From: a virus
Virus record (IMG/VR): IMGVR_UViG_3300046558_000178
Coordinates: 2,552 to 66,551 of that record
Reading direction: 5' to 3' (one strand)
Length of the DNA stretch: 64,000 bases
Shown here: piece after piece, positions 3,882 through 61,328 of the stretch
How the letters are laid out: each line of letters starts with the position of its first letter
How positions within the stretch are numbered: the stretch's first letter is position 1
Notes under the pieces: generated by a model
What the model was told of the DNA's origin: nothing
The model's input: only the letters and a program-made list of their open reading frames with translations
The model's database searches: none
Program-made: the position numbers and the translations under genes

Positions 3882-4024
3882 GCCGCACTCCATTCCGAAT
3901 ATGCTCTGACCATGGCGCCGGAATACAAGGCCACCATCACGATCAGCAGGATGATCAGGCCCCAGTTCGGGCCGGTTTGCGGTTTGTTTTCCATTGCAGG
4001 CCTTTCGGTTGATGTTGGGTTCAT
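3878..4024 (-). CDS. 48-aa single-TM protein (not in ORF track)
   Basis: MNPTSTERP...WGLIILLIVMVALYSGAM; ATGA overlaps on both sides. Confidence 0.55.
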   Translation of the reverse strand: MNPTSTERPAMENKPQTGPNWGLIILLIVMVALYSGAMVRAYSEWSAA

Positions 4025-4272
4025 GTGACCTCCTTTGCGGCTGCCCGCCTAACCCTGTCCCACGTTTTCTGGTTCATCAGCAGCACGGCGCCGCCGTTCA
4101 GACTGATGACTTGGCCGTCGGGAACGGTCTCCCAGTAGCCGAAGAAATCAGCCATCCACGCATTTGTCTTAGCGACCAGTTCAGGGTCTTGTATCCGCGC
4201 AAACTCAGGGCTGCACTGCATGCGTGGGCGCGCGGGCGAGATCTGGACCTTTGCCCCGAAGATTGAGGTCAT
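4021..4272 (-). CDS. Hypothetical phage protein
   Basis: 83-aa ORF coupled to neighbours. Confidence 0.65.
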   Translation of the reverse strand: MTSIFGAKVQISPARPRMQCSPEFARIQDPELVAKTNAWMADFFGYWETVPDGQVISLNGGAVLLMNQKTWDRVRRAAAKEVT

Positions 4273-4682
4273 GCTGCCCTCCGCTTCGGCGCCGCCGGCA
4301 GGTCCATCCAGGCCACAACCAGCGCCGATTCGATTGGCGTTGCATCGGCGTATCGCCAGACATCACCGTCACGGACGCCGGGCCACACTTCCTCATCCGA
4401 GAGCGCGAGCAGCACCAGGATATCGTCGTCCGGGAGGCGGTCGGCGACAGATGTCCAGCCGGTGGGCACCGAGCTGCGCAAGTCAGCGGTGGTGCCAATG
4501 CCGTCCAGCGCTTCGATTTCTTCCGTGGTCATGCCTATGCAGGCATTCCAGCACGCGGCTAGGCGTCGGGCGTCATCCCTCCTCATGCTAGCGGCGACAA
4601 TCATGCCCTTTGCACTGTTGATGTCGCAAGAATACTGCCAGACGGTCACATGCAGCCGCCCCTGGGTGTGCTGGCCGCTCAT
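4269..4682 (-). CDS. DUF551-like protein
   Basis: DARRLAACWNAC; WTSVADRLP...VVAWMDLPAAP motif; ATG overlaps rdgC stop. Confidence 0.7.
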   Translation of the reverse strand: MSGQHTQGRLHVTVWQYSCDINSAKGMIVAASMRRDDARRLAACWNACIGMTTEEIEALDGIGTTADLRSSVPTGWTSVADRLPDDDILVLLALSDEEVWPGVRDGDVWRYADATPIESALVVAWMDLPAAPKRRAA

Positions 4683-5947
4683 GATGCCGCTCCCGGCGCC
4701 GCCGCCATGTTGCGCACGCCCTTGGTCATCGCCGGCGCAGCGCTGTCCTCGCTTGCTTCTTCCATGTTGACGTAGGCGGCCAGCAGATGCATCTGGCGGT
4801 TGGTGTCGTATGTTGCCGTGCACAAGCTTGTTAAGGCACCCAGGTCGCTTACGCCGAGCTTGGCTGCTTCTGACTTGATCTCAGCACCCAGTTCGGCCAT
4901 GCGGCCAGCGAATTTATCGCCGAGGAGCGTCTGGGCGGCCGTATGCGCCTCGTACATCTTGGCTGCCACTTCCACCGTCCGGCGCGCTTTGCCGACGGTG
5001 CCGCCCAGTGCCAGCACCGTTTCGCCGCGTGTTGCGGGCGCAGGCTTCGCAACCGGTGCCGCGCCGTCCACCTCGCCACCCATCGCCTGCACCACATCAG
5101 CCAGCATCTTCGCCAGCTCGCCGGTCATCAGCGCAAAGTCGCCGTCGAAGCGCTCGTCGTCGTTGCGGGCGCTCTTGTTTTCCGTCAGCACGTCCAGCGC
5201 CCTGATCGACTTGATGGCCAGCGACTCGTCCAGCACAAAGCTGATCTTCGATTCCCAGGTCATCGCCAGGCGCGTGCACTGCTTGCCGGCGGCGATGTGT
5301 CGGCGTACGTCGTCCGCTTCCAGTGTGTGGCGCACGTACTTGACCTGGGCGCGGCTTTCGCCGGTGGCGCGCATGGTCGCATCGCGGTCGACCGTGAAGC
5401 CGGCCGGGGACTCGTCTGCTTGCAGCCATTCGGTCATCACACCCACCGGTGATCGCTGCACGCGCAGGCTTTCCAGCGGCATGCGGTCGACCGCCTTCAG
5501 CAGCAGCTTGATTACTTCATCGGCCTTACCCGGGCTGGCAGCGTCTACGACCAACCAGCCGTTGATCGGGTCGATCCAGACGGCCGTAGTGCTGGCGACG
5601 GAAAACGCCTTCGGCAGCAGTTCATCTGCTACGCGCTCGCGCAGTTCCTTCATGGCCTTCTTGCCGGGCGCGAAGCCTTGCGCTTCTTCCAGCTCGGCGC
5701 CGCGGGCCTTAGCCACCTGGTTGATAACGGTGGCGGGCAGCAGCTTCTTTTCGGTCTGAAGCTGAAGCAGCCATTGGCGGTTGACTACGTGGACCAGGTC
5801 GGCGCCGCGCGGTGCGGCCCAGCCTTGGCGCAACAGTTCGTTGCTGCTGGCGGGCGTGAAGGCGTGCGGCGCCAGGGCGGCGATCATCTGCTCGGCGGAA
5901 AACGCCCAGCCGGCGGGCACGCGGTATATTTGAGCGTTTTTGAACAT
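4679..5947 (-). CDS. rdgC: Recombination-associated protein RdgC with C-terminal extension
   Basis: MFKNAQIYR...EKKLLPATVI...ELLPKAF...FDGDFALMTGEL. Confidence 0.9.
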   Translation of the reverse strand: MFKNAQIYRVPAGWAFSAEQMIAALAPHAFTPASSNELLRQGWAAPRGADLVHVVNRQWLLQLQTEKKLLPATVINQVAKARGAELEEAQGFAPGKKAMKELRERVADELLPKAFSVASTTAVWIDPINGWLVVDAASPGKADEVIKLLLKAVDRMPLESLRVQRSPVGVMTEWLQADESPAGFTVDRDATMRATGESRAQVKYVRHTLEADDVRRHIAAGKQCTRLAMTWESKISFVLDESLAIKSIRALDVLTENKSARNDDERFDGDFALMTGELAKMLADVVQAMGGEVDGAAPVAKPAPATRGETVLALGGTVGKARRTVEVAAKMYEAHTAAQTLLGDKFAGRMAELGAEIKSEAAKLGVSDLGALTSLCTATYDTNRQMHLLAAYVNMEEASEDSAAPAMTKGVRNMAAAPGAAS

Positions 5948-5966
5948 GGTGGCTCCTGTGTTGTGC

Positions 5967-6671
5967 TTAGTCGTCGTAGCCGGGGTAGGCGGTGTCGAAG
6001 TCGTCCTCCGTGGCGCCGGCCGGGAAAATCAGTTTCGTCTTCGCGGTGTACATCTGGAACAGGCGCTTCTCGAAGGAGAAGAGTGGGCCGACAAACAGCT
6101 TGTTCTCGATGTCGTTGCCGTCGATAGTCAGGGCCCAGACTTCACCGCCGTTCCGGGTGCGCAGGCGGATGGCGCAGCTGTATTTGCTCGTGGCGCGCTC
6201 TTTGTCGATGAAGATGTCGGCGTAACCATCGCTGCTATCGGAATGCTGAATGTGCAGCGTGAATTCTTGGCCGCGCAGATCATCCGCGTCGTACTGATCC
6301 ATGCGGTGCGTCACGAATTCGGCCAGCAGATTCTCGAGCGTGATCTCGGCTGGCGCCGGCGACAGCATCTCGGAGATGTCCTTATCCAGCAGTTCGGTGA
6401 ACTGCTCGGTCATTGCGGCGCCAACGCGCTTCTGGATGATCTTGCCGACCAGGTCGCGGTAGGACGGCAGGTCGATGCCGGATAGGTTCACGTCAATGAG
6501 GCTGGCGACCTTCGCCTTGATGGCCTTGTTGAAGTCGCTGCTGTAGGTGAACTGGTCGGCAATGGCGGAAGTGACGGCCTTTGCTATGTGCGTCTCGATT
6601 GCCTGCTCGATGGTGCCGGATATAACCACGTTTTCGAATGCTGCGGCTACTGCGTTTTTCAGTGCGTCCAT
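5967..6671 (-). CDS. Hypothetical phage protein
   Basis: 234-aa ORF, AAGGA RBS, directly downstream of RT. Confidence 0.75.
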   Translation of the reverse strand: MDALKNAVAAAFENVVISGTIEQAIETHIAKAVTSAIADQFTYSSDFNKAIKAKVASLIDVNLSGIDLPSYRDLVGKIIQKRVGAAMTEQFTELLDKDISEMLSPAPAEITLENLLAEFVTHRMDQYDADDLRGQEFTLHIQHSDSSDGYADIFIDKERATSKYSCAIRLRTRNGGEVWALTIDGNDIENKLFVGPLFSFEKRLFQMYTAKTKLIFPAGATEDDFDTAYPGYDD

Positions 6672-6679
6672 GATTTTCC

Positions 6680-7975
6680 TTATTTGGTGGCAGATCTGAT
6701 GGATGGTCCGGTATGGCTGAACATTGCTTTGTAGGAGGAGAGCGCCTGGCTGCGGTCATACCCGCCGACCTCATGCTGGCGCAGGCGCTGGTGGTACCGC
6801 CGCCGGCCGTAGGCGCCGACGGAGACATGGTTTGGCCAGACGACGTAGCCGAGGAAGGGCACGCCGTCGGACACCGGTGCCAGGCGCACCTTTTTCGGAT
6901 GGATGGTCAGACCGTCGGCTGCCAGGCGCTCGACGATTGCGGCACTGATCGCCATCAGCTGCTCGCGGGATTCGCCCACGATCACCATGTCGTCCACGTA
7001 CCGGACGTAGTGGCGAACGCGCAGCACTTCCTTCACCCAATGGTCGAAATCGTTCAAGTAGACGTTTGCGAAAAGCTGGCTGCTCAAGTTTCCGATGGGC
7101 ATCCCCTTGTCCCGGGTGCGCCGATAGACGCTCGTGGCCGGGAATAAGTGATCATGCTCATCGCCCGACCGGAACGAGTCCACCAGGCTCACCAACAGCG
7201 TGCGGATGTCCTGGTCGCCGATGTAGCGCAGGACCCGCGCCTTCAAGAGAGAATGATTCACCGAATAGAAATACTTCGAAATGTCCAGCTGCAATACCCA
7301 CTTCGCATCCCGCGCGCGGGCGAAGCCGGCCACCCGGCGCACCGCAGCGTGCGTGCCGCGGCCCGGCAGGTTGCCGTATGTGTCCGCGATAAAGCGCGGC
7401 TGCCAGATTGGCAGCATGTAGTCGTAAAGCATCCAGTGGACGATTCGGTCCTTCATCGGCGCATCCACGACGTGGCGGAACTTCTTCTCGCGCACCACGA
7501 ACGTCTTGTACGGCCCGAAGGTGTACCGGCGTTCGCGCAGCTGCTGCTGGATGCTGGCAAGGTAGCGGAGTGGATCGTCGCCGAAGCGCTGCACGCGCGG
7601 GCTCTTGGACTTGTTTTTCCTGGCTTTCAGCCAGCAGCCGAACAGGCTGGACAGGTCGGTCATGCGGTGGAACTGTGCTGGCGCTGGGCCGCTTTCCGCT
7701 GCGGCACTCGGAAGCCCCGCAGCGGTCTTCGGTTTGGCGCTGGGCCGTGCTTTCGGGTTTATCCCAGGAGCTGATCGACCAAGAATTGGCTTTCCGTGAG
7801 CGGGCTCAGCGTCTAAGCATATAATTTTTGGGTCAGCGGAAGCCGACATTGTCGTTGGCGTTGGACGGATTCGCGTTGTTGAGCCTGAACACGCCGGCGT
7901 TGTCGCCGTCGTTCCAGTAGCCGCCGCGGATGAGCGCATTGCCGGACCTACCAGACCACCCCCTTCGTTGATCAT
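6680..7975 (-). CDS. DGR reverse transcriptase (start uncertain: 7975 or 7663)
   Basis: KARKNK, KDRIVHW, RGTHAA, LQLDISKYFYSVNH, GMPIGNLSSQLFAN (DGR-type SQ motif), YVRYVDD, FLGY; no maturase or endonuclease domain. Confidence 0.95.
   Translation of the reverse strand: MINEGGGLVGPAMRSSAAATGTTATTPACSGSTTRIRPTPTTMSASADPKIICLDAEPAHGKPILGRSAPGINPKARPSAKPKTAAGLPSAAAESGPAPAQFHRMTDLSSLFGCWLKARKNKSKSPRVQRFGDDPLRYLASIQQQLRERRYTFGPYKTFVVREKKFRHVVDAPMKDRIVHWMLYDYMLPIWQPRFIADTYGNLPGRGTHAAVRRVAGFARARDAKWVLQLDISKYFYSVNHSLLKARVLRYIGDQDIRTLLVSLVDSFRSGDEHDHLFPATSVYRRTRDKGMPIGNLSSQLFANVYLNDFDHWVKEVLRVRHYVRYVDDMVIVGESREQLMAISAAIVERLAADGLTIHPKKVRLAPVSDGVPFLGYVVWPNHVSVGAYGRRRYHQRLRQHEVGGYDRSQALSSYKAMFSHTGPSIRSATK
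7833..7949 (-). repeat. DGR template repeat (TR)
   Basis: 117 nt matching both VRs; nine AAY codons; ends TTCCGCTGACCC (IMH*-like). Confidence 0.95.
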
Positions 7976-8826
7976 GATGCTGCCTTTCCGGCGCGCAGCA
8001 GGCCGCCGACCAGGCGGCCAAGCTCAACGGCTAAGCCAGCGCGATGGTCGAACGCAAGTTTGAGCTTGCTTAGCCGTGGAGCCTGGGTCAGGTAGTGCTT
8101 GAGCAGATCGATGTCGGCCGAGATGGAGTGCAGCACCGCCCGGCGGTCCGCCGCTGTCCCGTAGGCGTAGACGTTGCCCATGACACGTGCCATGCACGCG
8201 CGCACGTTCTCGCCGAAGGTGGCGCGCAGGTCGCGTGGCATCTTGATGATGTCGTGCAGCAGCTGCGTGTCCAGGTCCTGGGCTTGTGTCTTCAGCTTAA
8301 AGCCGGCGCTGTCGGGGTTGGCCAGCATCTGTTTCGTCGCAGCCTGGTTGACCTCACCTCGGGCTCGCAGGTCTGCGATCACTTGCTGAACAATTTTGTC
8401 GGAGACTGCATTGAGCACTGAAGCATTGGCGCCGGCCTGGTCGGAAACGTAAAGCGTGTAGCCTTCGGCGCGGCTGCCGAGGTAGACCACGTACGGAATC
8501 TGGAATTCTTCCACCATGGACCACAGCCGCTTTTTGAAATTCCCGGCGGGGAAGCCCACGCGAATGTGTGGCGCGTCGCTGGTATTGACCAGTTTCAGCT
8601 GGTAGCCCTTGAGGGTATTGAGTGCGTGCGCGGTGCGATCGTAGCCGTGCAGGAAGCGGCCGACTTGCACCAGTACGAGGTGGCCGGGATGCTTCTGCTC
8701 CAGCTGGGCCGAGACGTCGGCCATCGGATCTTCCTGGCCAAGGCCGACCTCGATTCCACGATATGCGCGAATCGAGAACTGGCCCATCTCGGCCTGTGTC
8801 GGCACTTGCGATTCGGTTTTCGGCAT
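7972..8826 (-). CDS. DGR accessory protein: MutS-domain-I-like N-terminus fused to Avd-like helical bundle
   Basis: KHPGHLVLVQVGRFLHGYDRTA...VGFP resembles MutS-I; KMPRDLRATFGENVR...ELGRLVGGLLR resembles Avd; sits between target and TR. Confidence 0.8.
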   Translation of the reverse strand: MPKTESQVPTQAEMGQFSIRAYRGIEVGLGQEDPMADVSAQLEQKHPGHLVLVQVGRFLHGYDRTAHALNTLKGYQLKLVNTSDAPHIRVGFPAGNFKKRLWSMVEEFQIPYVVYLGSRAEGYTLYVSDQAGANASVLNAVSDKIVQQVIADLRARGEVNQAATKQMLANPDSAGFKLKTQAQDLDTQLLHDIIKMPRDLRATFGENVRACMARVMGNVYAYGTAADRRAVLHSISADIDLLKHYLTQAPRLSKLKLAFDHRAGLAVELGRLVGGLLRAGKAAS

Positions 8827-8851
8827 TTTCGTCCTGCCTATTCAATATTGA

Positions 8852-8907
8852 GAGGCCCGGTCACCGCTGCGCAGTGACCGGGAACCAGTGACCTGGGACC
8901 AGAGACC
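8852..8907 (-). other. Post-VR1 heptamer tract and hairpin (DGR target-recognition element)
   Basis: CCCGGTCACTGC-GCA-GCGGTGACCGGG stem-loop at 8856-8882. Confidence 0.8.
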
Positions 8908-9677
8908 TACAGGGGTTTGGTGCAGCGGAAGCCGACAAGGTCGTAGGCGTAGGACGGAGACGCGTGGTCGAGCCTGAACACGCCGGCGTAGTCGCCGTCG
9001 CCCCAGTAGCCGCCGCGGATGAGCGCAGTGCCGGACCAGTTGGCGCCGGCACGAGGCCGCCAGCCCATGCCACGTTCCATGGACGCATACGGCGCCGTGG
9101 CGATCGACGGCGAGTCGGCGGCAAAGGCCTGCGAGATCAGGCCATTGGCGTCGCCCTGGACGTCATCGAAGACCCAGGTAAAGGCGTTGCCTGCAGCGTC
9201 CACCACGGTCTGGTCGTCATCCAGGTAGAAGGCGCGGCGCTCGGAAGGGTCACGTGAAACGAAATCGCCGGCGTACGGTTCATCAACGTCGTCCAGGTCG
9301 AGGCGCAGGCCTTGGAACATGCTGCCCTCGCCGACGATTCCACTGACCCAGTTCGCCCGCTGCAGGAACAAGTTGAACGCCAGCGACAGCGCCTGGGTCT
9401 CGGTGATCAGCGCGAAGCCGGCATCGGCGCAGGCCTGGCGCGCATCGGAGTAGTTGATATCGACCCAGGGCTTGCCGGTGGCGCTTACAACAGCTTTGCC
9501 GTCTGCACCCTCCGAGCACAGGTACTGGCCGGCTTGGAAGGCTGGTACGACAATGCTCGGGCGCGTAACCACGCCTCCGACAATCACGCACGGCAGCGTG
9601 GTTTCGGGCACGGTGACGAACAGGTTTTTCTCGATTTCCGCTACTGCGTGCTGCTCGGTATGGGTTGCTGTGTTCAT
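8907..9677 (-). CDS. DGR target 1, CLec/FGE-sulfatase-fold protein
   Basis: PWVDINYSDARQAC, AGNAFTW, LIRGGYW...VGFRC; VR at C-terminus. Confidence 0.92.
   Translation of the reverse strand: MNTATHTEQHAVAEIEKNLFVTVPETTLPCVIVGGVVTRPSIVVPAFQAGQYLCSEGADGKAVVSATGKPWVDINYSDARQACADAGFALITETQALSLAFNLFLQRANWVSGIVGEGSMFQGLRLDLDDVDEPYAGDFVSRDPSERRAFYLDDDQTVVDAAGNAFTWVFDDVQGDANGLISQAFAADSPSIATAPYASMERGMGWRPRAGANWSGTALIRGGYWGDGDYAGVFRLDHASPSYAYDLVGFRCTKPL
8922..9038 (-). repeat. Variable repeat VR1
   Basis: 12 internal differences from TR (plus one at each edge), all at TR adenines. Confidence 0.95.
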
Positions 9678-9770
9678 GATGCTCCTTGGATGGGTGTAAG
9701 GACTTCAACTTGCTGCTGGATCGAACTGCGGGCGAGGATCAGGGCGGCTCGCCTGTGTAATTCACTCGAA

Positions 9771-9974
9771 TCATTTCGGCTCCTTCGGCCTTGGCGCGCG
9801 CCGCGCGTCGGCCAGCATGCGGTCCGCGACAGCCTGCAGACGGTCGCGGTCTTCAACCGCCGATTCGTTGGCGCGAAAACTCTTGCTGGACCGCAGGCTG
9901 GACCTCGTTCGGCACTGGCGCACTGCAGCTCGATCCAGGCGTGCCAGTCGTTGTTCCTCGGTTTCGGTTTGCAT
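9771..9974 (-). CDS. Small basic hypothetical protein
   Basis: 67-aa ORF, GGAGG RBS. Confidence 0.5.
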   Translation of the reverse strand: MQTETEEQRLARLDRAAVRQCRTRSSLRSSKSFRANESAVEDRDRLQAVADRMLADARRAPRPKEPK

Positions 9975-10076
9975 GCGCCCTCCGCAGCAATTTGGCGGCC
10001 CGCGCCGTAGCGCTGGCCAATCGGATTGAATGGCTGAATGTGTGGCCGGCGCACCAAGTGCTCCAGGCCGAGCGGA

Positions 10077-10220
10077 TTACGGATGCCATGCCGCATTCAC
10101 TTCCTGCAGGGCGACCAGCACCTGCTGCTGCGCCTCGTCATCGCTGCGCGCGGCATCTACATAGAACAGCCCCAGCAGGCTAAAGGCGGCGAGGACGCGG
10201 ATCCATGGGCGCCAGCTCAT
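10077..10220 (-). CDS. Small TM/secreted protein
   Basis: MSWRPWIRVLAAFSLLGLFYV; ATGA coupling. Confidence 0.45.
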   Translation of the reverse strand: MSWRPWIRVLAAFSLLGLFYVDAARSDDEAQQQVLVALQEVNAAWHP

Positions 10221-10360
10221 GGCAGACTCGCGATGGCGGCGCCGACCACATCGGCCAGCCATTCAGCCAGCGCGAGCAGCAGCATCACGGCCGTGATCAG
10301 GACGCTGCCGTTGCGCTCGCACCAGCCGCCGCGCGCTCCGAACACGATCCGCGCGCTCAC
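10217..10360 (-). CDS. Small membrane protein (not in ORF track)
   Basis: GTG start overlapping upstream stop; VLITAVMLLLALAEWLA hydrophobic stretch. Confidence 0.45.
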   Translation of the reverse strand: MSARIVFGARGGWCERNGSVLITAVMLLLALAEWLADVVGAAIASLP

Positions 10361-10590
10361 GACACAACTCCCGACCGGCCCGCCAACTGCATAGCGCCAC
10401 AGCGGAAGTAGTCATCCGCGCGGTGAGCGCCTGCAGGCATTTGCTCCGGCGCGTCCAGGCTACCGTCGTTCAGGACGGATTCGAGTCCGCTGTCCTGGTA
10501 GCGGAAGTGCAGCTGGTCGCTTACACGCAACCGGGAGTTCCTTCCACCGGTGGCGAGGCGCAGCTTTGAAGCGTGGTTTGCGTGCATCAC
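10357..10590 (-). CDS. Hypothetical protein
   Basis: 77-aa ORF with AGGAG RBS. Confidence 0.55.
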   Translation of the reverse strand: MMHANHASKLRLATGGRNSRLRVSDQLHFRYQDSGLESVLNDGSLDAPEQMPAGAHRADDYFRCGAMQLAGRSGVVS

Positions 10591-10602
10591 GATCTCCTGG
10601 TG

Positions 10603-10752
10603 CTAACGTGAGCGAACATTGGGCGTGCCGATCAGGCCCCAGCCGAGCTGGCGGCGAACTTCTTCAGGCGCTGGTGGCGGCAGGCGGGACAGTAAGCGCT
10701 GCTTTGTCCAGATGCGGACTTGCTCTTTGGTTGGGTGATTAACTGTTGCCAT
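10603..10752 (-). CDS. 49-aa protein with PPP-x-EEVRRQLGW motif
   Basis: MATVNHPTKEQVRIW...LPPPAPEEVRRQLGWGL; GGAG RBS; paralog at 26032. Confidence 0.7.
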   Translation of the reverse strand: MATVNHPTKEQVRIWTKQRLLSRLPPPAPEEVRRQLGWGLIGTPNVRSR

Positions 10753-10769
10753 GACTATCTCCAAGGAAT

Positions 10770-10818
10770 GGCCGCCGCTGCGCGGTGGCCGGTTACCCGT
10801 GACCTGGGGCCAGAGACC
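10770..10818 (-). other. Post-VR2 heptamer tract and hairpin
   Basis: GGCCACCGC-GCA-GCGGCGGCC at 10770-10790, same spacing from stop codon as at VR1. Confidence 0.75.
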
Positions 10819-11729
10819 TACAGGGTTTTGGTGCAGCGGAAGCCGACAAAGTCGACGGCGTAGGACGGAGTCGCGTAGCCGAGCCTGAACACGCCGGCGA
10901 CGTCGCCGTCGTTCCAGTAGCCGCCGCGGATGAGCGCACCGCCGGACCAGTCGCGGGCCCCGTCAGGGCGCCAGCCCATGCCGAACTGGCCAGAGGCGTA
11001 TGGGGCGACGATCAGGGATGGGGAGTCGTCAGCGAGGCGCGTGCACAGGCCATTGCTGTCGCCCTGGACGTCGTCGGAGGTCCAGGTGTAGATGTTGCCG
11101 GCTAGGCCGTAGACCTTTTCGCCGTTGGTCAGCACGTGCCAGCTGCGTTCTTCGGGATCATCACTCACGTAGTCAGCCGTCTGTGCGCTGCGCACCGTGC
11201 CCTTGTGCAGCCCCTGGAAGACCTTGCCGATGCCGACGGCGCCACCGGTCCAGTTTTCGGCCTGCTGGACTACATGCAGACGGATGGCAAGCTCCTGTGA
11301 CTCGCGCGCCAGCTCGTAGCCGACCGCCGAGCACGCAGCTGCTGCAGCGTTGAAGTTCACGTTCACCCATGGCTTCGCCGAGGCGCTCAGCTGGAGCGCA
11401 CCGTTATCGTCTTTCGACGCGGGGTACTTGGCGTATTTGAAGGCGGGAACGATGCGACCATTCGGCAGCAACGTCTCAGGCACGGTGACGAAGTGCTCGT
11501 CGGAGACCAGGCCCAGGTTGGACATCAGCGAGGGCGATCCGGACACGACGCGCTTCTCGGCGTCGAGAACGATCAGATGCAGGCCGGATGTGGCATGGCG
11601 GAACTTGGTGAAGCCCTCCCAGGCGCTTTCCACGGCCAGGCCGGTGATATTGCGGTCGTTCAGGCGCGCAGTGAAGGTGCGCTCCTCGATCAGTTCCAGT
11701 GCTGCAGGTTGGTTCATCGCTGTCTCCAT
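10818..11729 (-). CDS. DGR target 2, CLec/FGE-sulfatase-fold protein with extra N-terminal domain; first gene after pL
   Basis: Paralog of target 1 (FVTVPET, KPWV, FQGL, LAGNIYTW, LIRGGYW...VGFRC). Confidence 0.92.
   Translation of the reverse strand: METAMNQPAALELIEERTFTARLNDRNITGLAVESAWEGFTKFRHATSGLHLIVLDAEKRVVSGSPSLMSNLGLVSDEHFVTVPETLLPNGRIVPAFKYAKYPASKDDNGALQLSASAKPWVNVNFNAAAAACSAVGYELARESQELAIRLHVVQQAENWTGGAVGIGKVFQGLHKGTVRSAQTADYVSDDPEERSWHVLTNGEKVYGLAGNIYTWTSDDVQGDSNGLCTRLADDSPSLIVAPYASGQFGMGWRPDGARDWSGGALIRGGYWNDGDVAGVFRLGYATPSYAVDFVGFRCTKTL
10833..10949 (-). repeat. Variable repeat VR2
   Basis: 13 internal differences from TR (plus one at each edge), all at TR adenines. Confidence 0.95.
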
Positions 11730-11753
11730 CGGGTGATTGCTGCGTCGATGAAG

Positions 11754-11800
11754 ATATTAAACACCATGTTTAAAACTAATGCAAACACTATGTTTAAAAA
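11754..11800 (-). promoter_or_regulatory. pL/oL: two AAACA-N3-TGTTT operators overlapping TTGCAT-17-TTTAAT
   Basis: AAACACCATGTTT 11759-11771 and AAACACTATGTTT 11783-11795; near copy at oR. Confidence 0.8.
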
Positions 11801-11835
11801 GATGCGATTTTTTGCAAAACCGGGGCAGTGAGGCG

Positions 11836-11860
11836 AAAAAAAAGCCCGCGCGAGGCGGGC
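11836..11860 (-). terminator. Intrinsic terminator of cI transcript
   Basis: GCCCGC-CTCGC-GCGGGC followed by T8 on minus strand. Confidence 0.8.
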
Positions 11861-11923
11861 GTGGCACGGGGTGACGAATTAAGGCGACGCCAGCCGGTGG
11901 GAGGTAAGTTGTCTGCGCGTCAT

Positions 11924-12175
11924 CTATTGCGGCCCGGCGCTCCGAGCTGCCAGTATGCCGCGGTCAAACGCGCTGGAAGTTTGCGGCTCTGATTCTATGA
12001 ATGACCGCTCCGTAGGATCGGCTTTATTCCAATAGGCCATGCCCGCCTGGAAATGTGCTTCTTGTCGCGCGGCATGCCATTTCGAAAAAAATGAAAGCGG
12101 CTTAGTGGATGGGCCGTCTGCGCAACTGGGTGAACTGAGATCGGGCCCGGCGTTTATGTTGAAAGCCTTCTTCAT
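11924..12175 (-). CDS. Hypothetical immunity-region protein
   Basis: 83-aa ORF with GAGG RBS between cI and terminator. Confidence 0.55.
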   Translation of the reverse strand: MKKAFNINAGPDLSSPSCADGPSTKPLSFFSKWHAARQEAHFQAGMAYWNKADPTERSFIESEPQTSSAFDRGILAARSAGPQ

Positions 12176-12253
12176 GACGTGCCCTCAAATAGTAATAGAT
12201 GAGCTAACATATTAATGGACAATTGTTACTGGAAAACTATCCAATTGTTGCAC

Positions 12254-12964
12254 TCATATACGATCTGATTCCTTGCGGACTACGCGGCCGACGATGATGC
12301 ATTCTCCATTGCGGCACCGCTTGCGTGAGTACATGCGCTGGTCGGAGTTATCCGAAACCAGCCACCAGTCTCCCTGGTCGCGTACCAGGCGCTTGATCAC
12401 CGCCTCGCCCTCATAGTTGAACGCGTACACGGCGCCATCCTCCATACGCGTGTCAGCCGTGTTCACGATGACATGGTCGCCCTCGTAGAGGTTCGGCTCC
12501 ATGCTTTCGCCTCTCACCGATAGGGCGATGAGCTTCGCAGGGTAGTAGCCGTTACGGTCCACCCAGTACTTCGGCACGCTTTGCCGGCCGCCCTCGCGGT
12601 TATCAGGGGAGGTTTGGAATCCGGTGATGCCGGCTTGCAGCTGCAGCTTCACTTTCTGGATTTGATAGAAACCAGGGTCGCCATCTTCCGCGACCACCAC
12701 GGGGATGTAGTTGGCCAAGCCTGGCCCGACCATGTCGCCCACGCCATCGCGAAGCCAGATGGCATTGCACCCGATCACCTCCTGCGCGCTGAGCAACCCA
12801 TCGCTGGAGATGCCGCGCACCTCCCAGTTGTTCACCGTCTGCGGAGACACATTTAACAATTTGGCGACCGCACTTTGTCCTTCTGCATGGCGCAGCTCGG
12901 CAGCGGCCTGATAGAGGCGCGTCATTTGTGGGTGCATACCAACCCCATTCTCAGTATTTTTCAT
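12254..12964 (-). CDS. cI: CI-like repressor (HTH + S24 peptidase)
   Basis: QSAVAKLLNVSPQTVNNW HTH; VRGESMEP and VIKRL catalytic motifs; start codon approximate. Confidence 0.92.
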   Translation of the reverse strand: MKNTENGVGMHPQMTRLYQAAAELRHAEGQSAVAKLLNVSPQTVNNWEVRGISSDGLLSAQEVIGCNAIWLRDGVGDMVGPGLANYIPVVVAEDGDPGFYQIQKVKLQLQAGITGFQTSPDNREGGRQSVPKYWVDRNGYYPAKLIALSVRGESMEPNLYEGDHVIVNTADTRMEDGAVYAFNYEGEAVIKRLVRDQGDWWLVSDNSDQRMYSRKRCRNGECIIVGRVVRKESDRI

Positions 12965-12985
12965 AGCCTCAATGATCCCTGAACT

Positions 12986-13040
12986 AAACAAAATGTTGTT
13001 AAACATAGTGTTTGCGTTTTTCTTAAACATGGTGTGTAAT
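12986..13040 (+). promoter_or_regulatory. pR/oR: three AAACA-N3-TGTTT-like operators, TTGCGT-17-TGTAAT
   Basis: Sites at 12986-12998, 13001-13013, 13025-13037 between divergent cI and cro. Confidence 0.8.
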
Positions 13041-13046
13041 GTGGAT

Positions 13047-13289
13047 ATGGACGAGAAAAACCAAATTCAGGCCGACAAGGAGCTTATCGAGTCTTTGGGC
13101 GGACCTACCAGGCTGGCCGAGCTGCTCGGCTTCGACAAGGCAAAGGGCGGCGTGCAGCGCGTCCAAAACTGGATGACACGCGGCATTCCTGCGAGGGAAA
13201 AGCTGGCGCGGCCGGAGATTTTTCTTCAGCAGTTGGGCCGCGCCGGGCCAGGCACAGCCGACGTCGCCCCGGCCACCGTGGCCGACTAA
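13047..13289 (+). CDS. cro: Cro-like repressor
   Basis: LGGPTRLAELLG...VQRVQNWMTRGIP; divergent from cI. Confidence 0.85.
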   Translation: MDEKNQIQADKELIESLGGPTRLAELLGFDKAKGGVQRVQNWMTRGIPAREKLARPEIFLQQLGRAGPGTADVAPATVAD

Positions 13290-13355
13290 CCGAATTCACA
13301 AGCGCATCACCCGTTTCACCTGAACGCCTGCAACCCCACCCTTAGGAGAACCAGC

Positions 13356-13628
13356 ATGAAGACGAGTAGCAAAGCCCCGCGCAATGTCGTTGTTAAAGCC
13401 CTTCTTAACCCGGACGAGTTCTTGGATTTTCGTAATGCGTGTGCTGAATCCGATGTTTCGCATAGCAAGGCGCTCCGTGAGTTGGTGAGGGGCTTTGTTG
13501 CCCGCTGTAGGAATAGTAGTGGACCTCCTGCCAAGAAGGAATGGCCAAGTGCTGGCCAGAACATGGCCATGTTGATCACCGCGCGCCGGAGCTTGTTTGG
13601 CCCGCAGATGATCCCCCAACGTCTTTGA
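13356..13628 (+). CDS. Putative ribbon-helix-helix regulator in cII position
   Basis: VVVKALLNPDEF...SHSKALRELVR; AGGAG RBS. Confidence 0.6.
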   Translation: MKTSSKAPRNVVVKALLNPDEFLDFRNACAESDVSHSKALRELVRGFVARCRNSSGPPAKKEWPSAGQNMAMLITARRSLFGPQMIPQRL

Positions 13629-13698
13629 CGGCCGCCTGTGCTACCGCGTCGGCACGGACGGGACCGTGCAACAGGAATGATTTTTAACGGAGTAACTG

Positions 13699-14073
13699 AT
13701 GAAAAACATAGTGAACTGGACCCAATACATCGCCGTGCAGGTCGTGTTCTTTGCCTGCTTGTACGCGTGGAAGGTTGATCACATTGAAGGCGCGGGCGAC
13801 GTGCTGCAGAGCTTGCTGTGGGTGCTTGCCTTCGCGGGCATCGCGCTGGGGTTCTCGGATCCGCGCGGGGAAATCCAGCCGCGAAGCCATCTGCGGGGGA
13901 TTGTTGGCACCGTCAATTCCACCGTGCTGCTGACCATCCTCACCTGGTACGGCCATTTCATCCTCGTCATTTTCTACGCGCTGGGCCTGCTTGGCGCGAA
14001 GGTCTACCGCGACCAGTTCGGTGCCGACGGCAAGCCGCTGCCGGTCGCCACGCCGGCGCACGCCGAATCGTAG
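13699..14073 (+). CDS. Multi-pass membrane protein
   Basis: Three to four hydrophobic segments; GGAG RBS. Confidence 0.7.
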   Translation: MKNIVNWTQYIAVQVVFFACLYAWKVDHIEGAGDVLQSLLWVLAFAGIALGFSDPRGEIQPRSHLRGIVGTVNSTVLLTILTWYGHFILVIFYALGLLGAKVYRDQFGADGKPLPVATPAHAES

Positions 14074-14304: not shown

Positions 14305-14511
14305 ATGCTACCACAGCAGCCGACTCCAAGCCCCCGAGCCAGCACGCCAACTGAGCGAATTATCAAAAGCGTCTTCGATTGGCGCAACAAGGACAAGGAC
14401 GCCATCGCGGCGAAGGGTGACCGCGATGCGCAGCGTGCGGAGTACCGCGCGCGCAACGAAATGCGCGAGGCGGTTGATGTCGCGCAACGCAAACAGGGTG
14501 ACCAGCCATGA
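14305..14511 (+). CDS. Hypothetical protein
   Basis: GAGG RBS; ATGA-coupled to next gene. Confidence 0.6.
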   Translation: MLPQQPTPSPRASTPTERIIKSVFDWRNKDKDAIAAKGDRDAQRAEYRARNEMREAVDVAQRKQGDQP

Positions 14512-14873
14512 CGGGCCGCCCAAACCCAATTCCGCTGGAGCAGGCCCTCGATATGGTCGAAGCCTTCGTGCGTGCACGCCGGCAAGTGAGGTTGGCCGAT
14601 CTGGCTGCCGCCATGGACCTGGGCATCAGCACCGTTCGGCACTATGCACGCGAGCTGGAACTCGATGGCCGGCTGCACAAGGTCAAACCATTCGGCGTAG
14701 GCCTGCCGCGCAGCGCCGTATGGGCAGCAGGGCCGGCGCCATTTGTCGAAGAACCTGCCGAGCACGAGGCCGTCCACGTCATGGTGCAGAAATGGAAGGC
14801 TGGGCCGACGCGTACCAGCTGGCTGGAAGCGCATTTCTTCGGCCGCGTTGCTGCGCATGGAGCACGGGCATGA
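14508..14873 (+). CDS. Winged-HTH protein
   Basis: LADLAAAMDLGISTVRHYARELELDGRL. Confidence 0.7.
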   Translation: MTGRPNPIPLEQALDMVEAFVRARRQVRLADLAAAMDLGISTVRHYARELELDGRLHKVKPFGVGLPRSAVWAAGPAPFVEEPAEHEAVHVMVQKWKAGPTRTSWLEAHFFGRVAAHGARA

Positions 14874-15790
14874 AGGCCATTGACCTATTCTCCGGCGCGG
14901 GCGGATTCTCGACCGGCGCTCGCATGGCCGGAATCGACGTGGTGTGGGCAGCCAATCACTGGCCGGCCGCCGTCGCGATCCACTCGCAGAACCACCCTGG
15001 CGCCGCCCACCTGTGCCAGGACCTGCACCAGGCAAACTGGCTTGACGTGCCCGCGCACGACATCCTGCTGGCGTCACCCTGCTGCCAGGGTCACAGCAAG
15101 GCGCGCGGCAAGGCCAGCGGCAACCCGCAGCACGACGCCAGCCGGTCCACCGCATGGGCCGTCGTCTCGGCCGCCGAATACCACCGGCCCGCCTTCGCCG
15201 TCATCGAGAACGTGCCCGAGTTCACGCGCTGGGCGCTTTACCCGGCCTGGTGCGCGGCGATGGGTGCCCTAGGCTATGCGCTGACGCCCATGATCGTCGA
15301 CGCCGCCGACCACGGCGCGCCCCAGCATCGCGAACGCCTTTTCATCGTCGCGGTCCGAGCCAAGCATCCGCTGATGATTCACTTGGATAAGCGCGCGTAT
15401 GTCCCGGCCAGCAGCTTCATCGACTTCGGCGTCGGCAAGTGGTCGCTGGTCGACAAGCCGGGTCGCGCCGCCGCGACGCTGCGCCGGGTCCAGGCAGGCC
15501 GCCGCGCGCACGGGAATCGCTTCGTCATGCCGTACTACGGTGGCGGGTCCGGCCTGACGGGTCGCTGCCTAAGCAGGCCACTGGGCACGATCACCACCCG
15601 CGACCGTTGGGGTGTTGTCGACGGCGACCGCACGCGCATGCTCACCACTCAGGAGTGCCGCGCCGCGATGGGTTTCCCCGATGACTACATCCTGCCGGCG
15701 GCGCACCGCGATGCTGTTCACATGCTCGGTAACGCCGTTTGCCCGCCGCCCGCGCGGGACGTCATCACAGCTATGTTGGAGGCAGCATGA
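14870..15790 (+). CDS. C5 DNA cytosine methyltransferase
   Basis: DLFSGAGG, SPCCQGHS, ENVPEF, PQHRER, LGNAV motifs. Confidence 0.93.
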   Translation: MKAIDLFSGAGGFSTGARMAGIDVVWAANHWPAAVAIHSQNHPGAAHLCQDLHQANWLDVPAHDILLASPCCQGHSKARGKASGNPQHDASRSTAWAVVSAAEYHRPAFAVIENVPEFTRWALYPAWCAAMGALGYALTPMIVDAADHGAPQHRERLFIVAVRAKHPLMIHLDKRAYVPASSFIDFGVGKWSLVDKPGRAAATLRRVQAGRRAHGNRFVMPYYGGGSGLTGRCLSRPLGTITTRDRWGVVDGDRTRMLTTQECRAAMGFPDDYILPAAHRDAVHMLGNAVCPPPARDVITAMLEAA

Positions 15791-15960
15791 CCACCAATCC
15801 TTTGCAAGGCAACGTCCTCGCCGACAAGGTCATCGCCGCGGCGCTGTACAACATCGATGCGCACCTGGCGCGCCTACAGGCGAAGGCGGCCATCGCTGCT
15901 GCAGCCCAGGCCATGCCAATGGCTGATCGCCGGCCGCTGCTTGACGGGAGCGCACCATGA
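15787..15960 (+). CDS. Small hypothetical protein
   Basis: ATGA-coupled 57-aa ORF. Confidence 0.5.
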   Translation: MTTNPLQGNVLADKVIAAALYNIDAHLARLQAKAAIAAAAQAMPMADRRPLLDGSAP

Positions 15961-16087
15961 TCCAGCGCCATGCCATGCCCACCGGCGCCCCAATGATCAC
16001 CGCGCGCTGCATACACGCACATATGCAGTATGCCGCGAAACTCGAATTCGCGTTCCTGATGCTGAAGCTGGGCGTGAGGACGGTGGC

Positions 16088-16885
16088 ATGAACCAGGCTG
16101 ACATTTTCTCAGCCGGCGCCCGGGTCCTGCCGCCGGAAATCTCCGATCTGATCGCGCGCGGCGCCATCTTCGTGATCAATCACAGTGGCGGCAAAGATTC
16201 GCAGGCCATGTACTTGATGCTGCGCCAGCACGTGCCGGCCAGTCAGCGCATCCTCGTGCACGCTGACCTGGGAGAAGTCGAGTGGTCCGGCGCAGTCGAC
16301 CAGATCCGCACCACTACCGACGGTGAGCCTCTGCATATCTGCCGGTCCCGGCGCGGCCTGCTGCAGATGATCCGTGAGCGCGGCATGTTCCCGAGCCCAA
16401 GCCAGCGCCAGTGCACATCTGACCTGAAGCGCGGGCCGATCGAGCGGACTATCCGCCAGCTCGGCGTCAAGCTGATCGTGAACTGCATGGGCATGCGCGC
16501 CGAGGAGTCATCCGGCCGCGCCAAGCTGACGCCGTTCAAGCTCAACGCGCGCAATAGCCGCGCTGGCCGGAAATGGTACGACTGGCTGCCGATCCACGAC
16601 CTGACCACCGATGAGGTGTTCGCTACCATCGCTGCAGCCGGCCAGCGCCCGCACTGGGTCTACGCCGCTGGCATGTCGCGCTTCAGCTGCTGCTTTTGCA
16701 TCATGAGCAGCAAAGCCGACCTGACTACGGCCGCGCGCCTGAATCCGGCGTTGTACCGTACCTACGTCGAGCTGGAGCGCAGCACCGGCCAAGTAATGCT
16801 GATGCCATCGAAGAAGTATGGGCGGCAGACCCTGGAGCAAGTGACCGGAGTTGCGGTTCAGGCGCTTGAAGGGAGTGCAGCGTGA
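16088..16885 (+). CDS. PAPS-reductase-family (PP-loop) protein
   Basis: SGGKDS, RQCTSDLKRGP, GMRAEESSGR, PHWVY, RFSCCFCI. Confidence 0.88.
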   Translation: MNQADIFSAGARVLPPEISDLIARGAIFVINHSGGKDSQAMYLMLRQHVPASQRILVHADLGEVEWSGAVDQIRTTTDGEPLHICRSRRGLLQMIRERGMFPSPSQRQCTSDLKRGPIERTIRQLGVKLIVNCMGMRAEESSGRAKLTPFKLNARNSRAGRKWYDWLPIHDLTTDEVFATIAAAGQRPHWVYAAGMSRFSCCFCIMSSKADLTTAARLNPALYRTYVELERSTGQVMLMPSKKYGRQTLEQVTGVAVQALEGSAA

Positions 16886-21704: not shown

Positions 21705-22075
21705 CGGGCATCGCCTGGAGGAAACCCGGCGCCGCCAAGAAGAAGCCGAAATACGGCAACTCGAAGGTGACATTGAACGGCGAGAAATTCGATTCGCGGG
21801 CCGAACTGGCGCGCTACCAGGTGCTGCTCAAGCTGCAGCACGCTGGCGGAATCAGCCAGCTCACCCGTCAGGTGTCGTTCGTGCTGGCGCCGAAGGCAGT
21901 CGTGGGCGGCAAGCTGAAGCGCAGCCTGATCTACCGGGCCGACTTCCAGTACCGCGACCACGCGACCGGGCGCATGGTGGTGGAGGACGTGAAGGGGATG
22001 CTGACCGAGGCCTATAAGATTAAGCGGCACTTGATGAAGACCCTGCACGGCATCGACATCCTGGAGACGTCATGA
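21701..22075 (+). CDS. DUF1064 family putative endonuclease
   Basis: KYGNSKV...FDSRAE...YRADFQY...VEDVKG. Confidence 0.88.
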   Translation: MTGIAWRKPGAAKKKPKYGNSKVTLNGEKFDSRAELARYQVLLKLQHAGGISQLTRQVSFVLAPKAVVGGKLKRSLIYRADFQYRDHATGRMVVEDVKGMLTEAYKIKRHLMKTLHGIDILETS

Positions 22076-23115
22076 GCGTGGACGTGTTCAAGCCTGGCAA
22101 GTCGAAGGTCTGGCATTACCGGTTCCAGGTGGGTGGCGTGCGCGTGCAGCGCAGCACGAAGTTGCGGGAGAAGGGCGCGGCCGAGAAGGTGGCCGAGCGG
22201 GCCTACTCGAACGCCGTAGAGCGCGCCAACGGCGGCAAGGTGATTCCGACGCTGGGTGAACTCTTCGCCGAGTGGGAGCAAGTGCGCGCCCCGGTGGCCA
22301 GCGCGGCACACCGCAAGGCGGTGGATGTAGTGCGGCGTCTGCACATGTACGACCTGGCCGACCTGCCGCTAAGCGCGCTTACCACCATCAGGATGGAGCG
22401 AGCCCGGAATCTGCACCTGCAGGATCACAAGCCCGCCTCCGTCAATCACTGGCTGCGGGTTATGAAGTTGATGGTCAACTGGGCGGTGGCGCGTGAGATT
22501 TTGCCGCGTCTGCCGTGGAAGTTGGCATTGATGAAAGTCCAGAAGCGACCACGCACCATTCTTCCGTTGGATGTGGCCATGGCGTGGTTCACCGAGGTCG
22601 ACGCCGCCACTCCGCGTACACCATTTGTGGCCACTGCCATCCGGCTGATGTTTGGCGCCGGCTTGCGCGAAAGCGAGGCGGCCAGTGCGCGATGGGAGTG
22701 GCTCGACTGGGAGCGTTGCACCTATACCCCTGGGGTGACCAAGGGCCGCGAAGCAGAACCTATCCCGCTGCCACAGTGGTTGCTCGACCACCTGACGCCG
22801 CGGCGCCAATCAGAGGGCTTGATCGCGCCGCGCGCTGATGGCACACAACTACCGGCTGGGTTCGCGCGCAGCACCATGGTGATCGCGAACATGAAGTGCC
22901 GGACCAAGGGCATCACGCCACACCGCCTACGCGGCAGCTTCGCCACACTGCTCTCGGAGAATGGCGCGAACATTCAGACCATCCAGGCGGTGATGCGGCA
23001 CAAGAGTCACACCACGACCATGACCTATTTGGAAAAGGACATGAGCAAGGTGTCTGCAGCCCAATCGAAAATAGCCGGAAAAATCGGGTTCGCAGGGCGA
23101 GAAAATGGCGAGTGA
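22072..23115 (+). CDS. Tyrosine recombinase (second, internal)
   Basis: GLRESE, TKG, HRLRGSFAT, MRHKS, TMTY catalytic set. Confidence 0.9.
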   Translation: MSVDVFKPGKSKVWHYRFQVGGVRVQRSTKLREKGAAEKVAERAYSNAVERANGGKVIPTLGELFAEWEQVRAPVASAAHRKAVDVVRRLHMYDLADLPLSALTTIRMERARNLHLQDHKPASVNHWLRVMKLMVNWAVAREILPRLPWKLALMKVQKRPRTILPLDVAMAWFTEVDAATPRTPFVATAIRLMFGAGLRESEAASARWEWLDWERCTYTPGVTKGREAEPIPLPQWLLDHLTPRRQSEGLIAPRADGTQLPAGFARSTMVIANMKCRTKGITPHRLRGSFATLLSENGANIQTIQAVMRHKSHTTTMTYLEKDMSKVSAAQSKIAGKIGFAGRENGE

Positions 23116-60591: not shown

Positions 60592-61275
60592 TTAGGCGCT
60601 GCCGGGCATCGCAACTTCATCCGCCAAGTACTCACCCTGATTCCGCACGCTCCCCACCGCCTTGTCGACCATGTACCACGCGAAGCTGTCGGGCCCCAAC
60701 GCCATTGACCGCGCCAGCTCGGCGGCCTGCTCGCTGGAGATTGCCGGGTCAAGCCAGGTCGTCGCGTCCGCCGCGGTGAACACCACCGGCCGCCTGTCGT
60801 GGATGTCGACCATGCCGCCCTGGGCGTCGGCCGTGACGATCGTGAAGCCGTGCGATGCCGCGTGCTCGGTCGGCTCGCCGAAGCAGGCGAGGGCGGCCAT
60901 GTACAGCGGTCCGCCGTCCACGTGGTGGATGTGCCAGGGCTGCTTCGCACCTTTCTCGCCAGTCCACTCATACCAGCCGTCCGCCGGCACAATGCAGCGT
61001 CCGCGCGTCAGCAGTTGCCCCCAGTAGTGGTTCGTGACTTTCTCCAGCCGCGCGTTTACCGCGACCGGCACCTTCCCTTGAGCCCACACCGCCTGGTAGC
61101 CCCAGTGCAGGTCGTCTAGCAGCAGCGCGCCGCCCTCAACGCGGAGCACTGGCCGGCGCATCGTCGGCGCCACGTTCCAGCACGGCGCGGCGGTGCTGCG
61201 ATTGACGAATTCATCCACCCAGCCGATATCGGCCAGCGCCTTCTCTACGTCGCTCTGATGGAACCGTCCGCACAT
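60592..61275 (-). CDS. SOS-response-associated peptidase (SRAP/YedK family)
   Basis: MCGRF start, NVAPT, NARLE, RCIVPADGWYEW, IHDRRPV. Confidence 0.93.
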   Translation of the reverse strand: MCGRFHQSDVEKALADIGWVDEFVNRSTAAPCWNVAPTMRRPVLRVEGGALLLDDLHWGYQAVWAQGKVPVAVNARLEKVTNHYWGQLLTRGRCIVPADGWYEWTGEKGAKQPWHIHHVDGGPLYMAALACFGEPTEHAASHGFTIVTADAQGGMVDIHDRRPVVFTAADATTWLDPAISSEQAAELARSMALGPDSFAWYMVDKAVGSVRNQGEYLADEVAMPGSA

Positions 61276-61328
61276 GTGGCCTCCGCGTTGTCGTCTTGGC
61301 ACTTTACAATAAAACGTCAGGCGATATA

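Follow-up and report, generated by a model that had tools for sequence, protein, structure and literature searches.

We describe a diversity-generating retroelement (DGR) in a 64,000-nucleotide stretch of viral DNA, bases 2552-66551 of the 66,551-base virus record IMGVR_UViG_3300046558_000178; this whole stretch is called the window, and all coordinates below refer to it. The record is that of a lambda-like temperate siphovirus from rhizosphere metagenomes, and its closest relatives are prophages of Oxalobacteraceae and other Betaproteobacteria. We propose, with a probability of roughly 0.6, that the complete DGR forms the promoter-proximal block of a repressor-controlled leftward early operon and that its two target proteins are soluble, leaderless and made early, acting in the infected cell and not as parts of the virion.

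A DGR cassette with two targets

The components of the cassette all lie on the minus strand in the order target 2, a set of small open reading frames (ORFs), target 1, an accessory ORF, the template repeat (TR) and the reverse transcriptase (RT). The variable repeats (VRs) make up the last ~39 codons of each target, before a terminal GFRCTKxL and the stop codon. Both targets carry a C-type lectin (CLec) domain of the formylglycine-generating enzyme (FGE) type.

10818-11729, minus: target 2, 303 aa; likely start at the second ATG, at 11717; FGE-sulfatase 1e-4
10833-10949, minus: VR2; 15 mismatches to the TR, all at TR adenines
10770-10790, minus: imperfect GC-rich inverted repeat with a GCA loop, downstream of VR2 and inside the VR-specific 3' flank
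10606-10752, minus: orf53, a small early protein conserved in 12 related loci
9674-10590, minus: small ORFs between the targets (77, 50, 61 and 140 aa), putatively coding
8907-9677, minus: target 1, 256 aa, a bare FGE-type CLec domain; phrog_2889 3e-20, phrog_9572 4e-13
8922-9038, minus: VR1; 14 mismatches to the TR, all at TR adenines
8856-8882, minus: GC-rich hairpin downstream of VR1, with a 12-bp stem and GCA loop; fold z-score -3.1, 0 of 200 shuffles folding as well
7972-8826, minus: accessory protein, 284 aa, with a predicted MutS-domain-I-like (MSL) N-terminal domain fused to Avd
7833-7949, minus: TR, with nine AAY codons in the target frame
6680-7663, minus: DGR RT; RVT_1 1e-24, phrog_1423 1e-102

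The TR aligns without gaps to both VRs over 117 positions, 26 of which are TR adenines. Leaving aside the two boundary positions, VR1 and VR2 differ from the TR at 12 and 13 positions respectively, and every one of these is a TR adenine in an AAY codon; our recomputed counts are the same as those first claimed, and with the boundary positions included 29 of 29 mismatches are at adenines. The hypergeometric chance of all mismatches falling on the 24 internal adenines among 115 positions is 4.4e-10 for VR1 (12/12) and 5.1e-11 for VR2 (13/13). The nine AAY codons allow 15^9, or 3.8e10, amino-acid combinations per target, again in line with the earlier figure of about 4e10. A BLAST search with the TR returned only three copies (the TR itself, VR1 and VR2) in the window and in the full record, and hence there is no VR in the head or tail genes, as the original prediction had stated. 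Beyond the part homologous to the TR, the 3' flanks of VR1 and VR2 have 58 of 77 positions in common, including 35 of the first 37; the TR 3' flank shares only 18 of 77 positions with them. The hairpin downstream of VR1 stands out from shuffled sequences, while the inverted repeat downstream of VR2 folds no better than they do.

In PDB the RT matches the Bordetella DGR RT best (8ub7_A, 1e-36), with group II intron and retron RTs scoring lower. It has the motifs IGNLSSQ and YVDD, and [I/L]GxxxSQ is the signature of DGR RTs. Its start codon is uncertain because the ORF stays open to 7975, across the TR. The accessory gene was absent from the original account of the element. Its product has an Avd domain as its C-terminal half, which is recovered by phrog_3206 (3e-5) and by a Foldseek match to 8ub7_E (TMt 0.81); the Pfam bAvd model gives 0.0097 and 16.8 bits, below the 40-bit cut-off. 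The N-terminal half superposes on Taq MutS 1ewq_B (Foldseek E 9.4e-4, 99 columns, root-mean-square deviation 3.6) as well as on many other MutS chains. A search of PDB with the accessory profile yielded nothing significant, and the Pfam MutS_I model finds only the canonical mutS gene in five host genomes. This protein has at least 356 homologues, and the 120 listed are 258-297 aa long (mostly 280-285) and 63-98% identical, so that the single-chain MSL-Avd fusion is a real, conserved protein.

Target 2 consists of a beta-rich N-terminal domain of about 75 residues (hereafter N-domain) and the FGE-type CLec domain. Its AlphaFold (AF2) model has a pLDDT of 92 and is matched by Foldseek to formylglycine-generating enzymes, TaqVP (5vf4) and Mtd (1yu0); a phmmer search with the sequence against PDB found nothing significant. 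Target 1 is 48% identical to target 2 and has only ~17 residues preceding its CLec domain. We found no hydrophobic N-terminal leader, lipobox or membrane segment in either target, though no dedicated signal-peptide predictor was used, and the sole hydrophobic stretch of target 1 coincides with FVTVPETTLP, a conserved beta region of the fold. The homologues of the targets include 510 of 166-531 aa and just one weak match (29% identity) of 532 aa or more, which the tool itself rates as weak evidence. These results agree with the earlier statement that the targets lack both a signal peptide and a fibre stalk.

The N-domain was found in just nine clusters among 1.84 billion representatives, and in three of the nine its partner is a domain of the Lcl_C (DUF1566) type, matched below the cut-off at E 1e-4 to 2e-5. 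Since it occurs with either FGE-type or Lcl_C-type domains, it appears to be a constant module that is paired with exchangeable variable domains. A search of the ESM Atlas with the N-domain gave a best score of 0.87 and no named family. The small protein orf53 belongs to a family of 49-55 aa with the consensus MT.TTHP.K.QVR.W..QR..SRLPPP.PEEIRRQLGW, which usually adjoins N-domain targets, be they FGE-type or Lcl_C-type (loci including L041-L043). A predicted complex of the N-domain (residues 1-85 of target 2) with orf53 scored 0.00, a result that counts neither way. The other small ORFs between the targets show conservation by tblastn in four relatives (L002-L005) and have no family matches.

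Comparison with relatives speaks directly to the activity of the element. The TRs of L003 and L005 are 100% identical to that of the window, and the TR of L004 (99%) is one base off. Across the nine VRs of the window and these three relatives, 138 of 138 mismatches to the window TR are at adenines; the VRs of the three relatives all differ from each other and from those of the window, and in the relatives adenines outside AAY codons are altered too. Because relatives with an identical TR carry VRs that differ only at adenines, the element has evidently been active in recent evolution; the original prediction had held that an element lacking adenine-specific variation in its relatives would be an inactive one, and it is precisely this variation that we find. 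In L002, whose TR is off the contig, each of three VRs has one or two non-adenine differences to the window TR, and a C-to-T change common to all three suggests a change in its own TR. For three more distant loci, in which the VRs were compared with the TR of the same locus, the mismatches at adenines per VR are as follows:

L017: 10/11, 14/15, 14/16
L034: 15/16, 16/17, 17/19, 20/22
L011: 13/14, 17/18, 16/16

Further variants come from contigs of four other rhizosphere runs, in which 11 of the 12 VR differences listed are at TR-adenine sites, the twelfth being the C-to-T change of the L002 type. The contigs of these other samples often break off at the TR and VRs or close by (7900-7950, 8900-9040 and 10650-10910; records 1, 5 and 7 of run X2 and several of X3-X5), which is the assembly breakage expected at hypervariable repeats; a stretch left uncovered by the X2 contigs, 10671-10847, is without evidential weight. 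Judged from these sequence comparisons, the DGR is almost certainly real and has almost certainly been active.

Operators, putative promoter and gene order

The 17-mer AAACACNATGTTTAAAA has six matches where 0.04 are expected. Two copies lie within 11759-11799, upstream of target 2, and two within 12997-13037, between cI and cro, with the same spacing of 24 bp at both pairs. The target 2-side and cro-side regions align without gaps, with 56 of 81 positions identical and a 42-nt core that is almost identical. The features of this control region are:

11735-11815, minus: pL-like control region, reading toward target 2; operators 11759-11775 and 11783-11799 overlap promoter-like -35/-10 hexamers
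11844-11860, minus: terminator-like hairpin of six G-C pairs followed by the T-run TTTTTTTT, placed to end the cI-orf83 transcript before pL
12254-12964, minus: cI, with helix-turn-helix (HTH) and S24 domains; Peptidase_S24 1.6e-20, phrog_4 1e-39
13047-13289, plus: cro-like gene

The simplest reading of this arrangement is a duplicated operator-promoter pair of the OL/OR kind, in which target 2 would be the first gene of pL. The original prediction had likewise placed the element in the leftward early operon with target 2 as the first gene after the pL operators, and the two 17-bp operators at 11759-11799, together with the same pair at cI/cro, agree with it; we regard this placement as well supported by the sequence and quite probable. 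The genes from 11729 down to 290 form a co-directional array with short gaps. That rdgC comes next after the RT, as had been supposed, proved incorrect, since another ORF intervenes:

5967-6671, minus: phrog_2600 ORF, 234 aa, next after the RT
4679-5947, minus: RdgC, after the phrog_2600 ORF

Elsewhere in the leftward array one ORF has a weak Ea22-like match (E 4e-4, below the cut-off). The arrangement resembles the lambda pL operon in its S24 cI, in the paired operators duplicated on the cro and leftward sides, and in a leftward co-directional array with recombination-associated (RdgC) and putative Ea22-like genes. It differs from lambda in that the first pL gene is a DGR target, no N-like antiterminator was recognised, and the integrase lies at the far right (61692-63125) and not at the end of the leftward array. 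The remaining landmarks of the window are:

20243, plus: DnaC-like loader
24430, plus: anti-repressor
28566, plus: TerL
30472, plus: portal
32740, plus: major head protein
43959, plus: major tail protein
51309-56498, plus: J-like central fibre
58016, plus: endolysin
61692-63125, minus: integrase, at the right end of the record

Several other genes deserve mention in their own right. To the right of the immunity region, 14417-16885 (plus) encodes a DNA methyltransferase (phrog_116 2e-79) followed by a PAPS-reductase-domain protein (Pfam 9e-12), which may be a DNA-modification pair; many related loci have homologues of the methyltransferase on the other side of cI. A second tyrosine recombinase of the Phage_integrase family (22072-23115, plus; Pfam 4.5e-17, phrog_1 2e-45) is found in the middle of the rightward early region and is kept in a Duganella provirus (G006, discussed below) at 61% identity. 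Between the head genes and the head-tail adaptor there is a 1053-aa ORF (38761-41922, plus) with no PHROG or Pfam match, preceded by a block of small ORFs (36050-38544, minus) that are likewise without matches; the arrangement over 36050-41922 looks like an insertion within the structural module. An SOS-response-associated peptidase (SRAP) gene (60592-61515, minus; Pfam 4e-46) adjoins the right-end integrase. Scans of the window found no Rfam family and no tRNA.

Conservation of the layout in related prophages

The layout of a cI/HTH gene, targets, MSL-Avd, TR and RT, often with RdgC, recurs in 35 loci, 9 from IMG/VR and 26 from genomes of Pseudoduganella, Duganella, Herminiimonas, Undibacterium, Solimicrobium, Telluria, Thauera, Aromatoleum, Methylotenera, Gallionella and metagenome-assembled genomes. 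The search of related prophages for the early-operon DGR layout, which had been suggested with the original prediction, was in this way fruitful. These loci, among which L006 and L014 are one Duganella prophage, are mostly betaproteobacterial prophages and usually have 2-4 targets per cassette. MSL-Avd is present in 30 of the 35. A same-strand cI-like or HTH ORF upstream of the targets was detected by phmmer in 11 of the 35 and by an iterated hidden Markov model in 24; ten of the additional cI-like ORFs were checked in Pfam, and five have S24, three the Cro/C1 HTH only and two no match. In L019 and L035 an integrase lies 2-4 kb beyond the RT. With the window's own proteins as the only queries, no relatives of TerL, portal, major capsid protein or J were found within 10 kb in any of the 35 loci. 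Searches against 50,697 GenBank phage records gave no match, neither by megablast with 4000-13500 nor by tblastn with target 2 or with MSL-Avd.

In L017 a DUF4406 domain (2e-25) is fused to the CLec domain of a confirmed target (the VR with 10/11 mismatches at adenines). We take DUF4406 to belong to the nucleoside 2-deoxyribosyltransferase-like clan. In three sister prophages from IMG/VR (L044-L046, ~7977-13770) a DGR is found at the same place after cI, with three targets in which the N-domain is joined to an Lcl_C/DUF1566-type domain, and with its own TR and RT. The mismatches of these targets are at adenines in 11/11, 12/12 and 12/12 cases, the TR lies inside a 5' extension of the RT ORF, and phmmer detected no MSL-Avd homologue in these three. 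Two further IMG/VR loci, L041 and L043, each have two copies of an N-domain/Lcl_C protein on opposite strands, ~6 kb apart; no RT or TR was detected within the 16.5 kb examined, and these copies may be orphan or remote targets.

The most complete comparison is with the Duganella provirus G006, which retains the RT at 75% identity, MSL-Avd at 82%, target 2 at 61%, target 1 at 54% and RdgC at 58%. In the same provirus TerL is 22% and the portal 29% identical to those of the window, tblastn found no match to any window tail gene or to the major capsid protein, and the tail is of another type, with a 1828-aa tape measure and a phrog_24210 fibre. Its TR-like copies are just the TR and three VRs, all in the cassette.

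Possible roles of the variable proteins

The mode of operation that these features suggest is as follows. In a lysogen, cI bound at both operator pairs, along with the ending of its own transcript at the terminator 11844-11860, would keep the cassette silent. Upon induction or infection, pL would transcribe target 2, the small ORFs, target 1, MSL-Avd, TR and RT as a single early unit. The RT with Avd would then copy the TR RNA, misincorporating opposite adenines, and the resulting cDNA, directed by the flank found only at the VRs, would take the place of VR1 or VR2 as the phage genomes replicate. The heteroduplex of cDNA and VR would contain mismatches, and its handling is a possible task of the MutS-I-like domain. 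In this scheme the targets would be variable binding proteins in phage-host or phage-phage conflict, with the conserved N-domain of target 2 as a constant end for effector function or docking. Intracellular DGR targets have been discussed for cellular genomes.

As the cassette sits behind a repressor-controlled early promoter and not among the tail genes, its variable proteins probably act inside the infected cell. We consider such a non-virion, intracellular role to be the best-supported reading on the sequence evidence (0.55-0.6). The bare CLec domain of target 1, the DUF4406 fusion of L017 and the retention of the module beside an unrelated tail in G006 all speak for it, if indirectly. So do the absence of a hydrophobic leader, the single weak match among homologues of 532 aa or more, the distance of the 35 loci from relatives of the window's TerL, portal, major capsid protein and J, and the pairing of the N-domain with an Lcl_C-type domain in the sister prophages.

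A number of points weigh against the account as a whole. The CLec fold is typical of receptor binders, given that the viral structural neighbours of the target model in BFVD are mainly long tail fibres with a CLec tip. Placement in the early region is compatible with incorporation of the targets into virions, and DUF4406 is a family without established function. The tail-independence of the module is suggested by one fully compared relative, G006. The timing of expression is drawn from the analogy with lambda OL/OR; the -35/-10 hexamers of pL were read by eye, and a consensus promoter scan made no call there. The variants from other runs come from assembled Logan contigs and amount to supporting evidence, not to a measurement of activity. 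As to the accessory protein, its assignment to MutS domain I is drawn solely from the predicted fold: Pfam MutS_I did not match it, and profile-profile comparison (hhalign) with host MutS N-termini gave an E of 0.018 and a probability of 2.6%, with GRFLH aligned to GDFYE.

If the targets do act intracellularly, it is conceivable that in a large family of temperate phages the DGR serves as an adaptive counter-measure: the proteins made first from the early left operon would recognise and neutralise variable host factors inside the cell, such as defence proteins, or the products of rival prophages. On this proposal, which is a tentative one, these hypervariable lectin-fold binders would be rediversified in each replication burst, and the effector end, put forward just as tentatively, would be the N-domain of target 2 or, in one relative, DUF4406. 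PADLOC matched no defence model to the 10 early-arm proteins searched.

The main rival holds that the targets are virion-associated receptor-binding or adhesion proteins encoded in an accessory-rich early arm, with the N-domain docking on tail or capsid and diversification serving host-range switching. The precedent is the mtd-avd-TR-brt DGR of phage BPP-1, whose single target Mtd is described in the available text as a virion structural protein, the trimeric tip of the tail fibre that mediates host attachment (Roux preprint 10.1101/2020.04.01.020958, PMC8008677). The two elements are alike in several respects: both are in temperate phages with homologous RTs and Avd-fold accessories, their TR-to-VR differences are confined to adenines, and the VR is at the C-terminus of a CLec fold, followed by a VR-specific 3' flank with, in the present element, a candidate GC hairpin. 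In favour of the rival, a C-terminal VR on a CLec fold is the classic design of a receptor-binding tip, tail-fibre proteins predominate among the BFVD neighbours, Mtd itself is among the PDB matches, and a conserved N-domain with exchangeable variable domains is what a docking module would be expected to look like. Surveys, as far as the text available goes, also conclude that viral targets lacking an annotation are probably structural (Roux preprint 10.1101/2020.04.01.020958).

However, Mtd-like tropism determinants would be expected in or next to the tail module and with an N-terminal fibre or attachment region, whereas the present targets are 17-40 kb from the structural genes, directly after pL, and the 35 relatives are similar. 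Unlike BPP-1, this phage opens its cI-controlled early operon with two small targets of the FGE type, where relatives have 2-4; its Avd is fused to a MutS-I-like domain, and its structural genes contain no VR. Target 1 and the third targets of relatives are devoid of a docking domain, none of the close homologues forms the end of a long fibre, G006 keeps the module beside a tail set without detectable similarity, and the target of L017 carries a DUF4406 domain. We therefore consider a virion-associated binder unlikely, while it is the strongest of the competing explanations.

It is less probable still that the targets act outside the cytoplasm without being part of the virion, either released at lysis onto surface glycans or debris, or made in the lysogen from an unrecognised promoter as an exclusion or adhesion factor. 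In its favour, known cellular DGR targets are mostly surface-displayed, according to the parts of the surveys available (PMC5758913, Roux preprint 10.1101/2020.04.01.020958). The present targets share the FGE-sulfatase CLec subtype and short length of Treponema TvpA and Thermus TaqVP (category 'b' of Wu et al., VR class CLec1), a category in which 52 of 71 targets are reported in that text to be without another motif (PMC5758913). Those are targets of cellular DGRs, while here they are phage early-operon genes without export signals: a signal peptide, lipobox or membrane segment was not seen by the inspection described above, made without a dedicated predictor. Further, the terminator-like hairpin sets target 2 apart from the cI transcript, the one promoter-like site is overlapped by the operators, and the lack of a PADLOC match likewise speaks against this rival. 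Finally, the notion that the cassette is a non-working passenger with VR differences as relics, to which the uncertain start of an RT ORF continuing across the TR might lend some colour, is very improbable: all parts are intact, the RT keeps YVDD and IGNLSSQ, relatives share the identical TR while all their VRs differ, at adenines only, and contigs of other samples carry further adenine-site variants.

Two other comparisons help to place the system. MutS-like MSL accessories, 112-283 aa in size, have been reported for 16 avd-containing DGRs, and two targets for 13% of DGRs, in the part of the survey text available (PMC5758913). The present system is like these MSL-containing DGRs (Architecture D) in having a predicted MutS-like N-terminal domain together with Avd; in the text of Wu et al. 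that was available MSL and avd are separate genes, whereas here they form one polypeptide of 284 aa. A parallel for a phage DGR target outside the structural module is Quimbyvirus, a gut Bacteroides phage, in which such a target is described, in the text available, as lying in a defence-related island with a proposed role in phage-host conflict (Benler et al. 2021, PMC8008677). Quimbyvirus keeps a target in the structural module and its non-structural target is remote from the RT, whereas here all targets are beside the RT in the early arm, with an identifiable repressor-operator module and a layout conserved across many prophages. A viral CotH-kinase target is mentioned as another exception to structural targets in the portion of the Roux preprint available (10.1101/2020.04.01.020958).

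Multi-target DGRs, motif-free FGE-type targets and MSL accessories are already known (PMC5758913), as is a non-structural phage target (PMC8008677), so far as the available text of these sources goes. In our literature search we found no DGR described inside a cI/pL early operon, although members may be listed in the supplements of PMC5758913 and the Roux study, and no single-chain MSL-Avd protein, which the supplementary tables of PMC5758913 may include. The same search found no report of a whole cassette placed, with all its targets, next to the promoter in a cI-controlled early operon, no conservation of an early-operon layout over a large betaproteobacterial prophage family, and, among the Oxalobacteraceae genera searched, no DGR described in Duganella, Massilia, Janthinobacterium or Herminiimonas.

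To our knowledge, phage DGRs have been seen almost exclusively as a means of changing host range through virion proteins. In the family described here the cassette, including all of its 2-4 targets, appears to be controlled by the phage's immunity switch and to be uncoupled from the tail genes. The family is conserved and easily recognised, numbering over 350 MSL-Avd proteins and over 500 homologues of the targets; therefore, the questions it raises can be tested in cultured hosts with related prophages, such as Duganella sp. BJB476 (L014) and Pseudoduganella rivuli FT92W (L011). The first of these is what a phage would gain from hypervariable non-structural proteins and the second is when a phage DGR fires, while the fusion of a MutS-I-like domain to Avd may offer a way to study the processing of the mismatched intermediate between cDNA and target.

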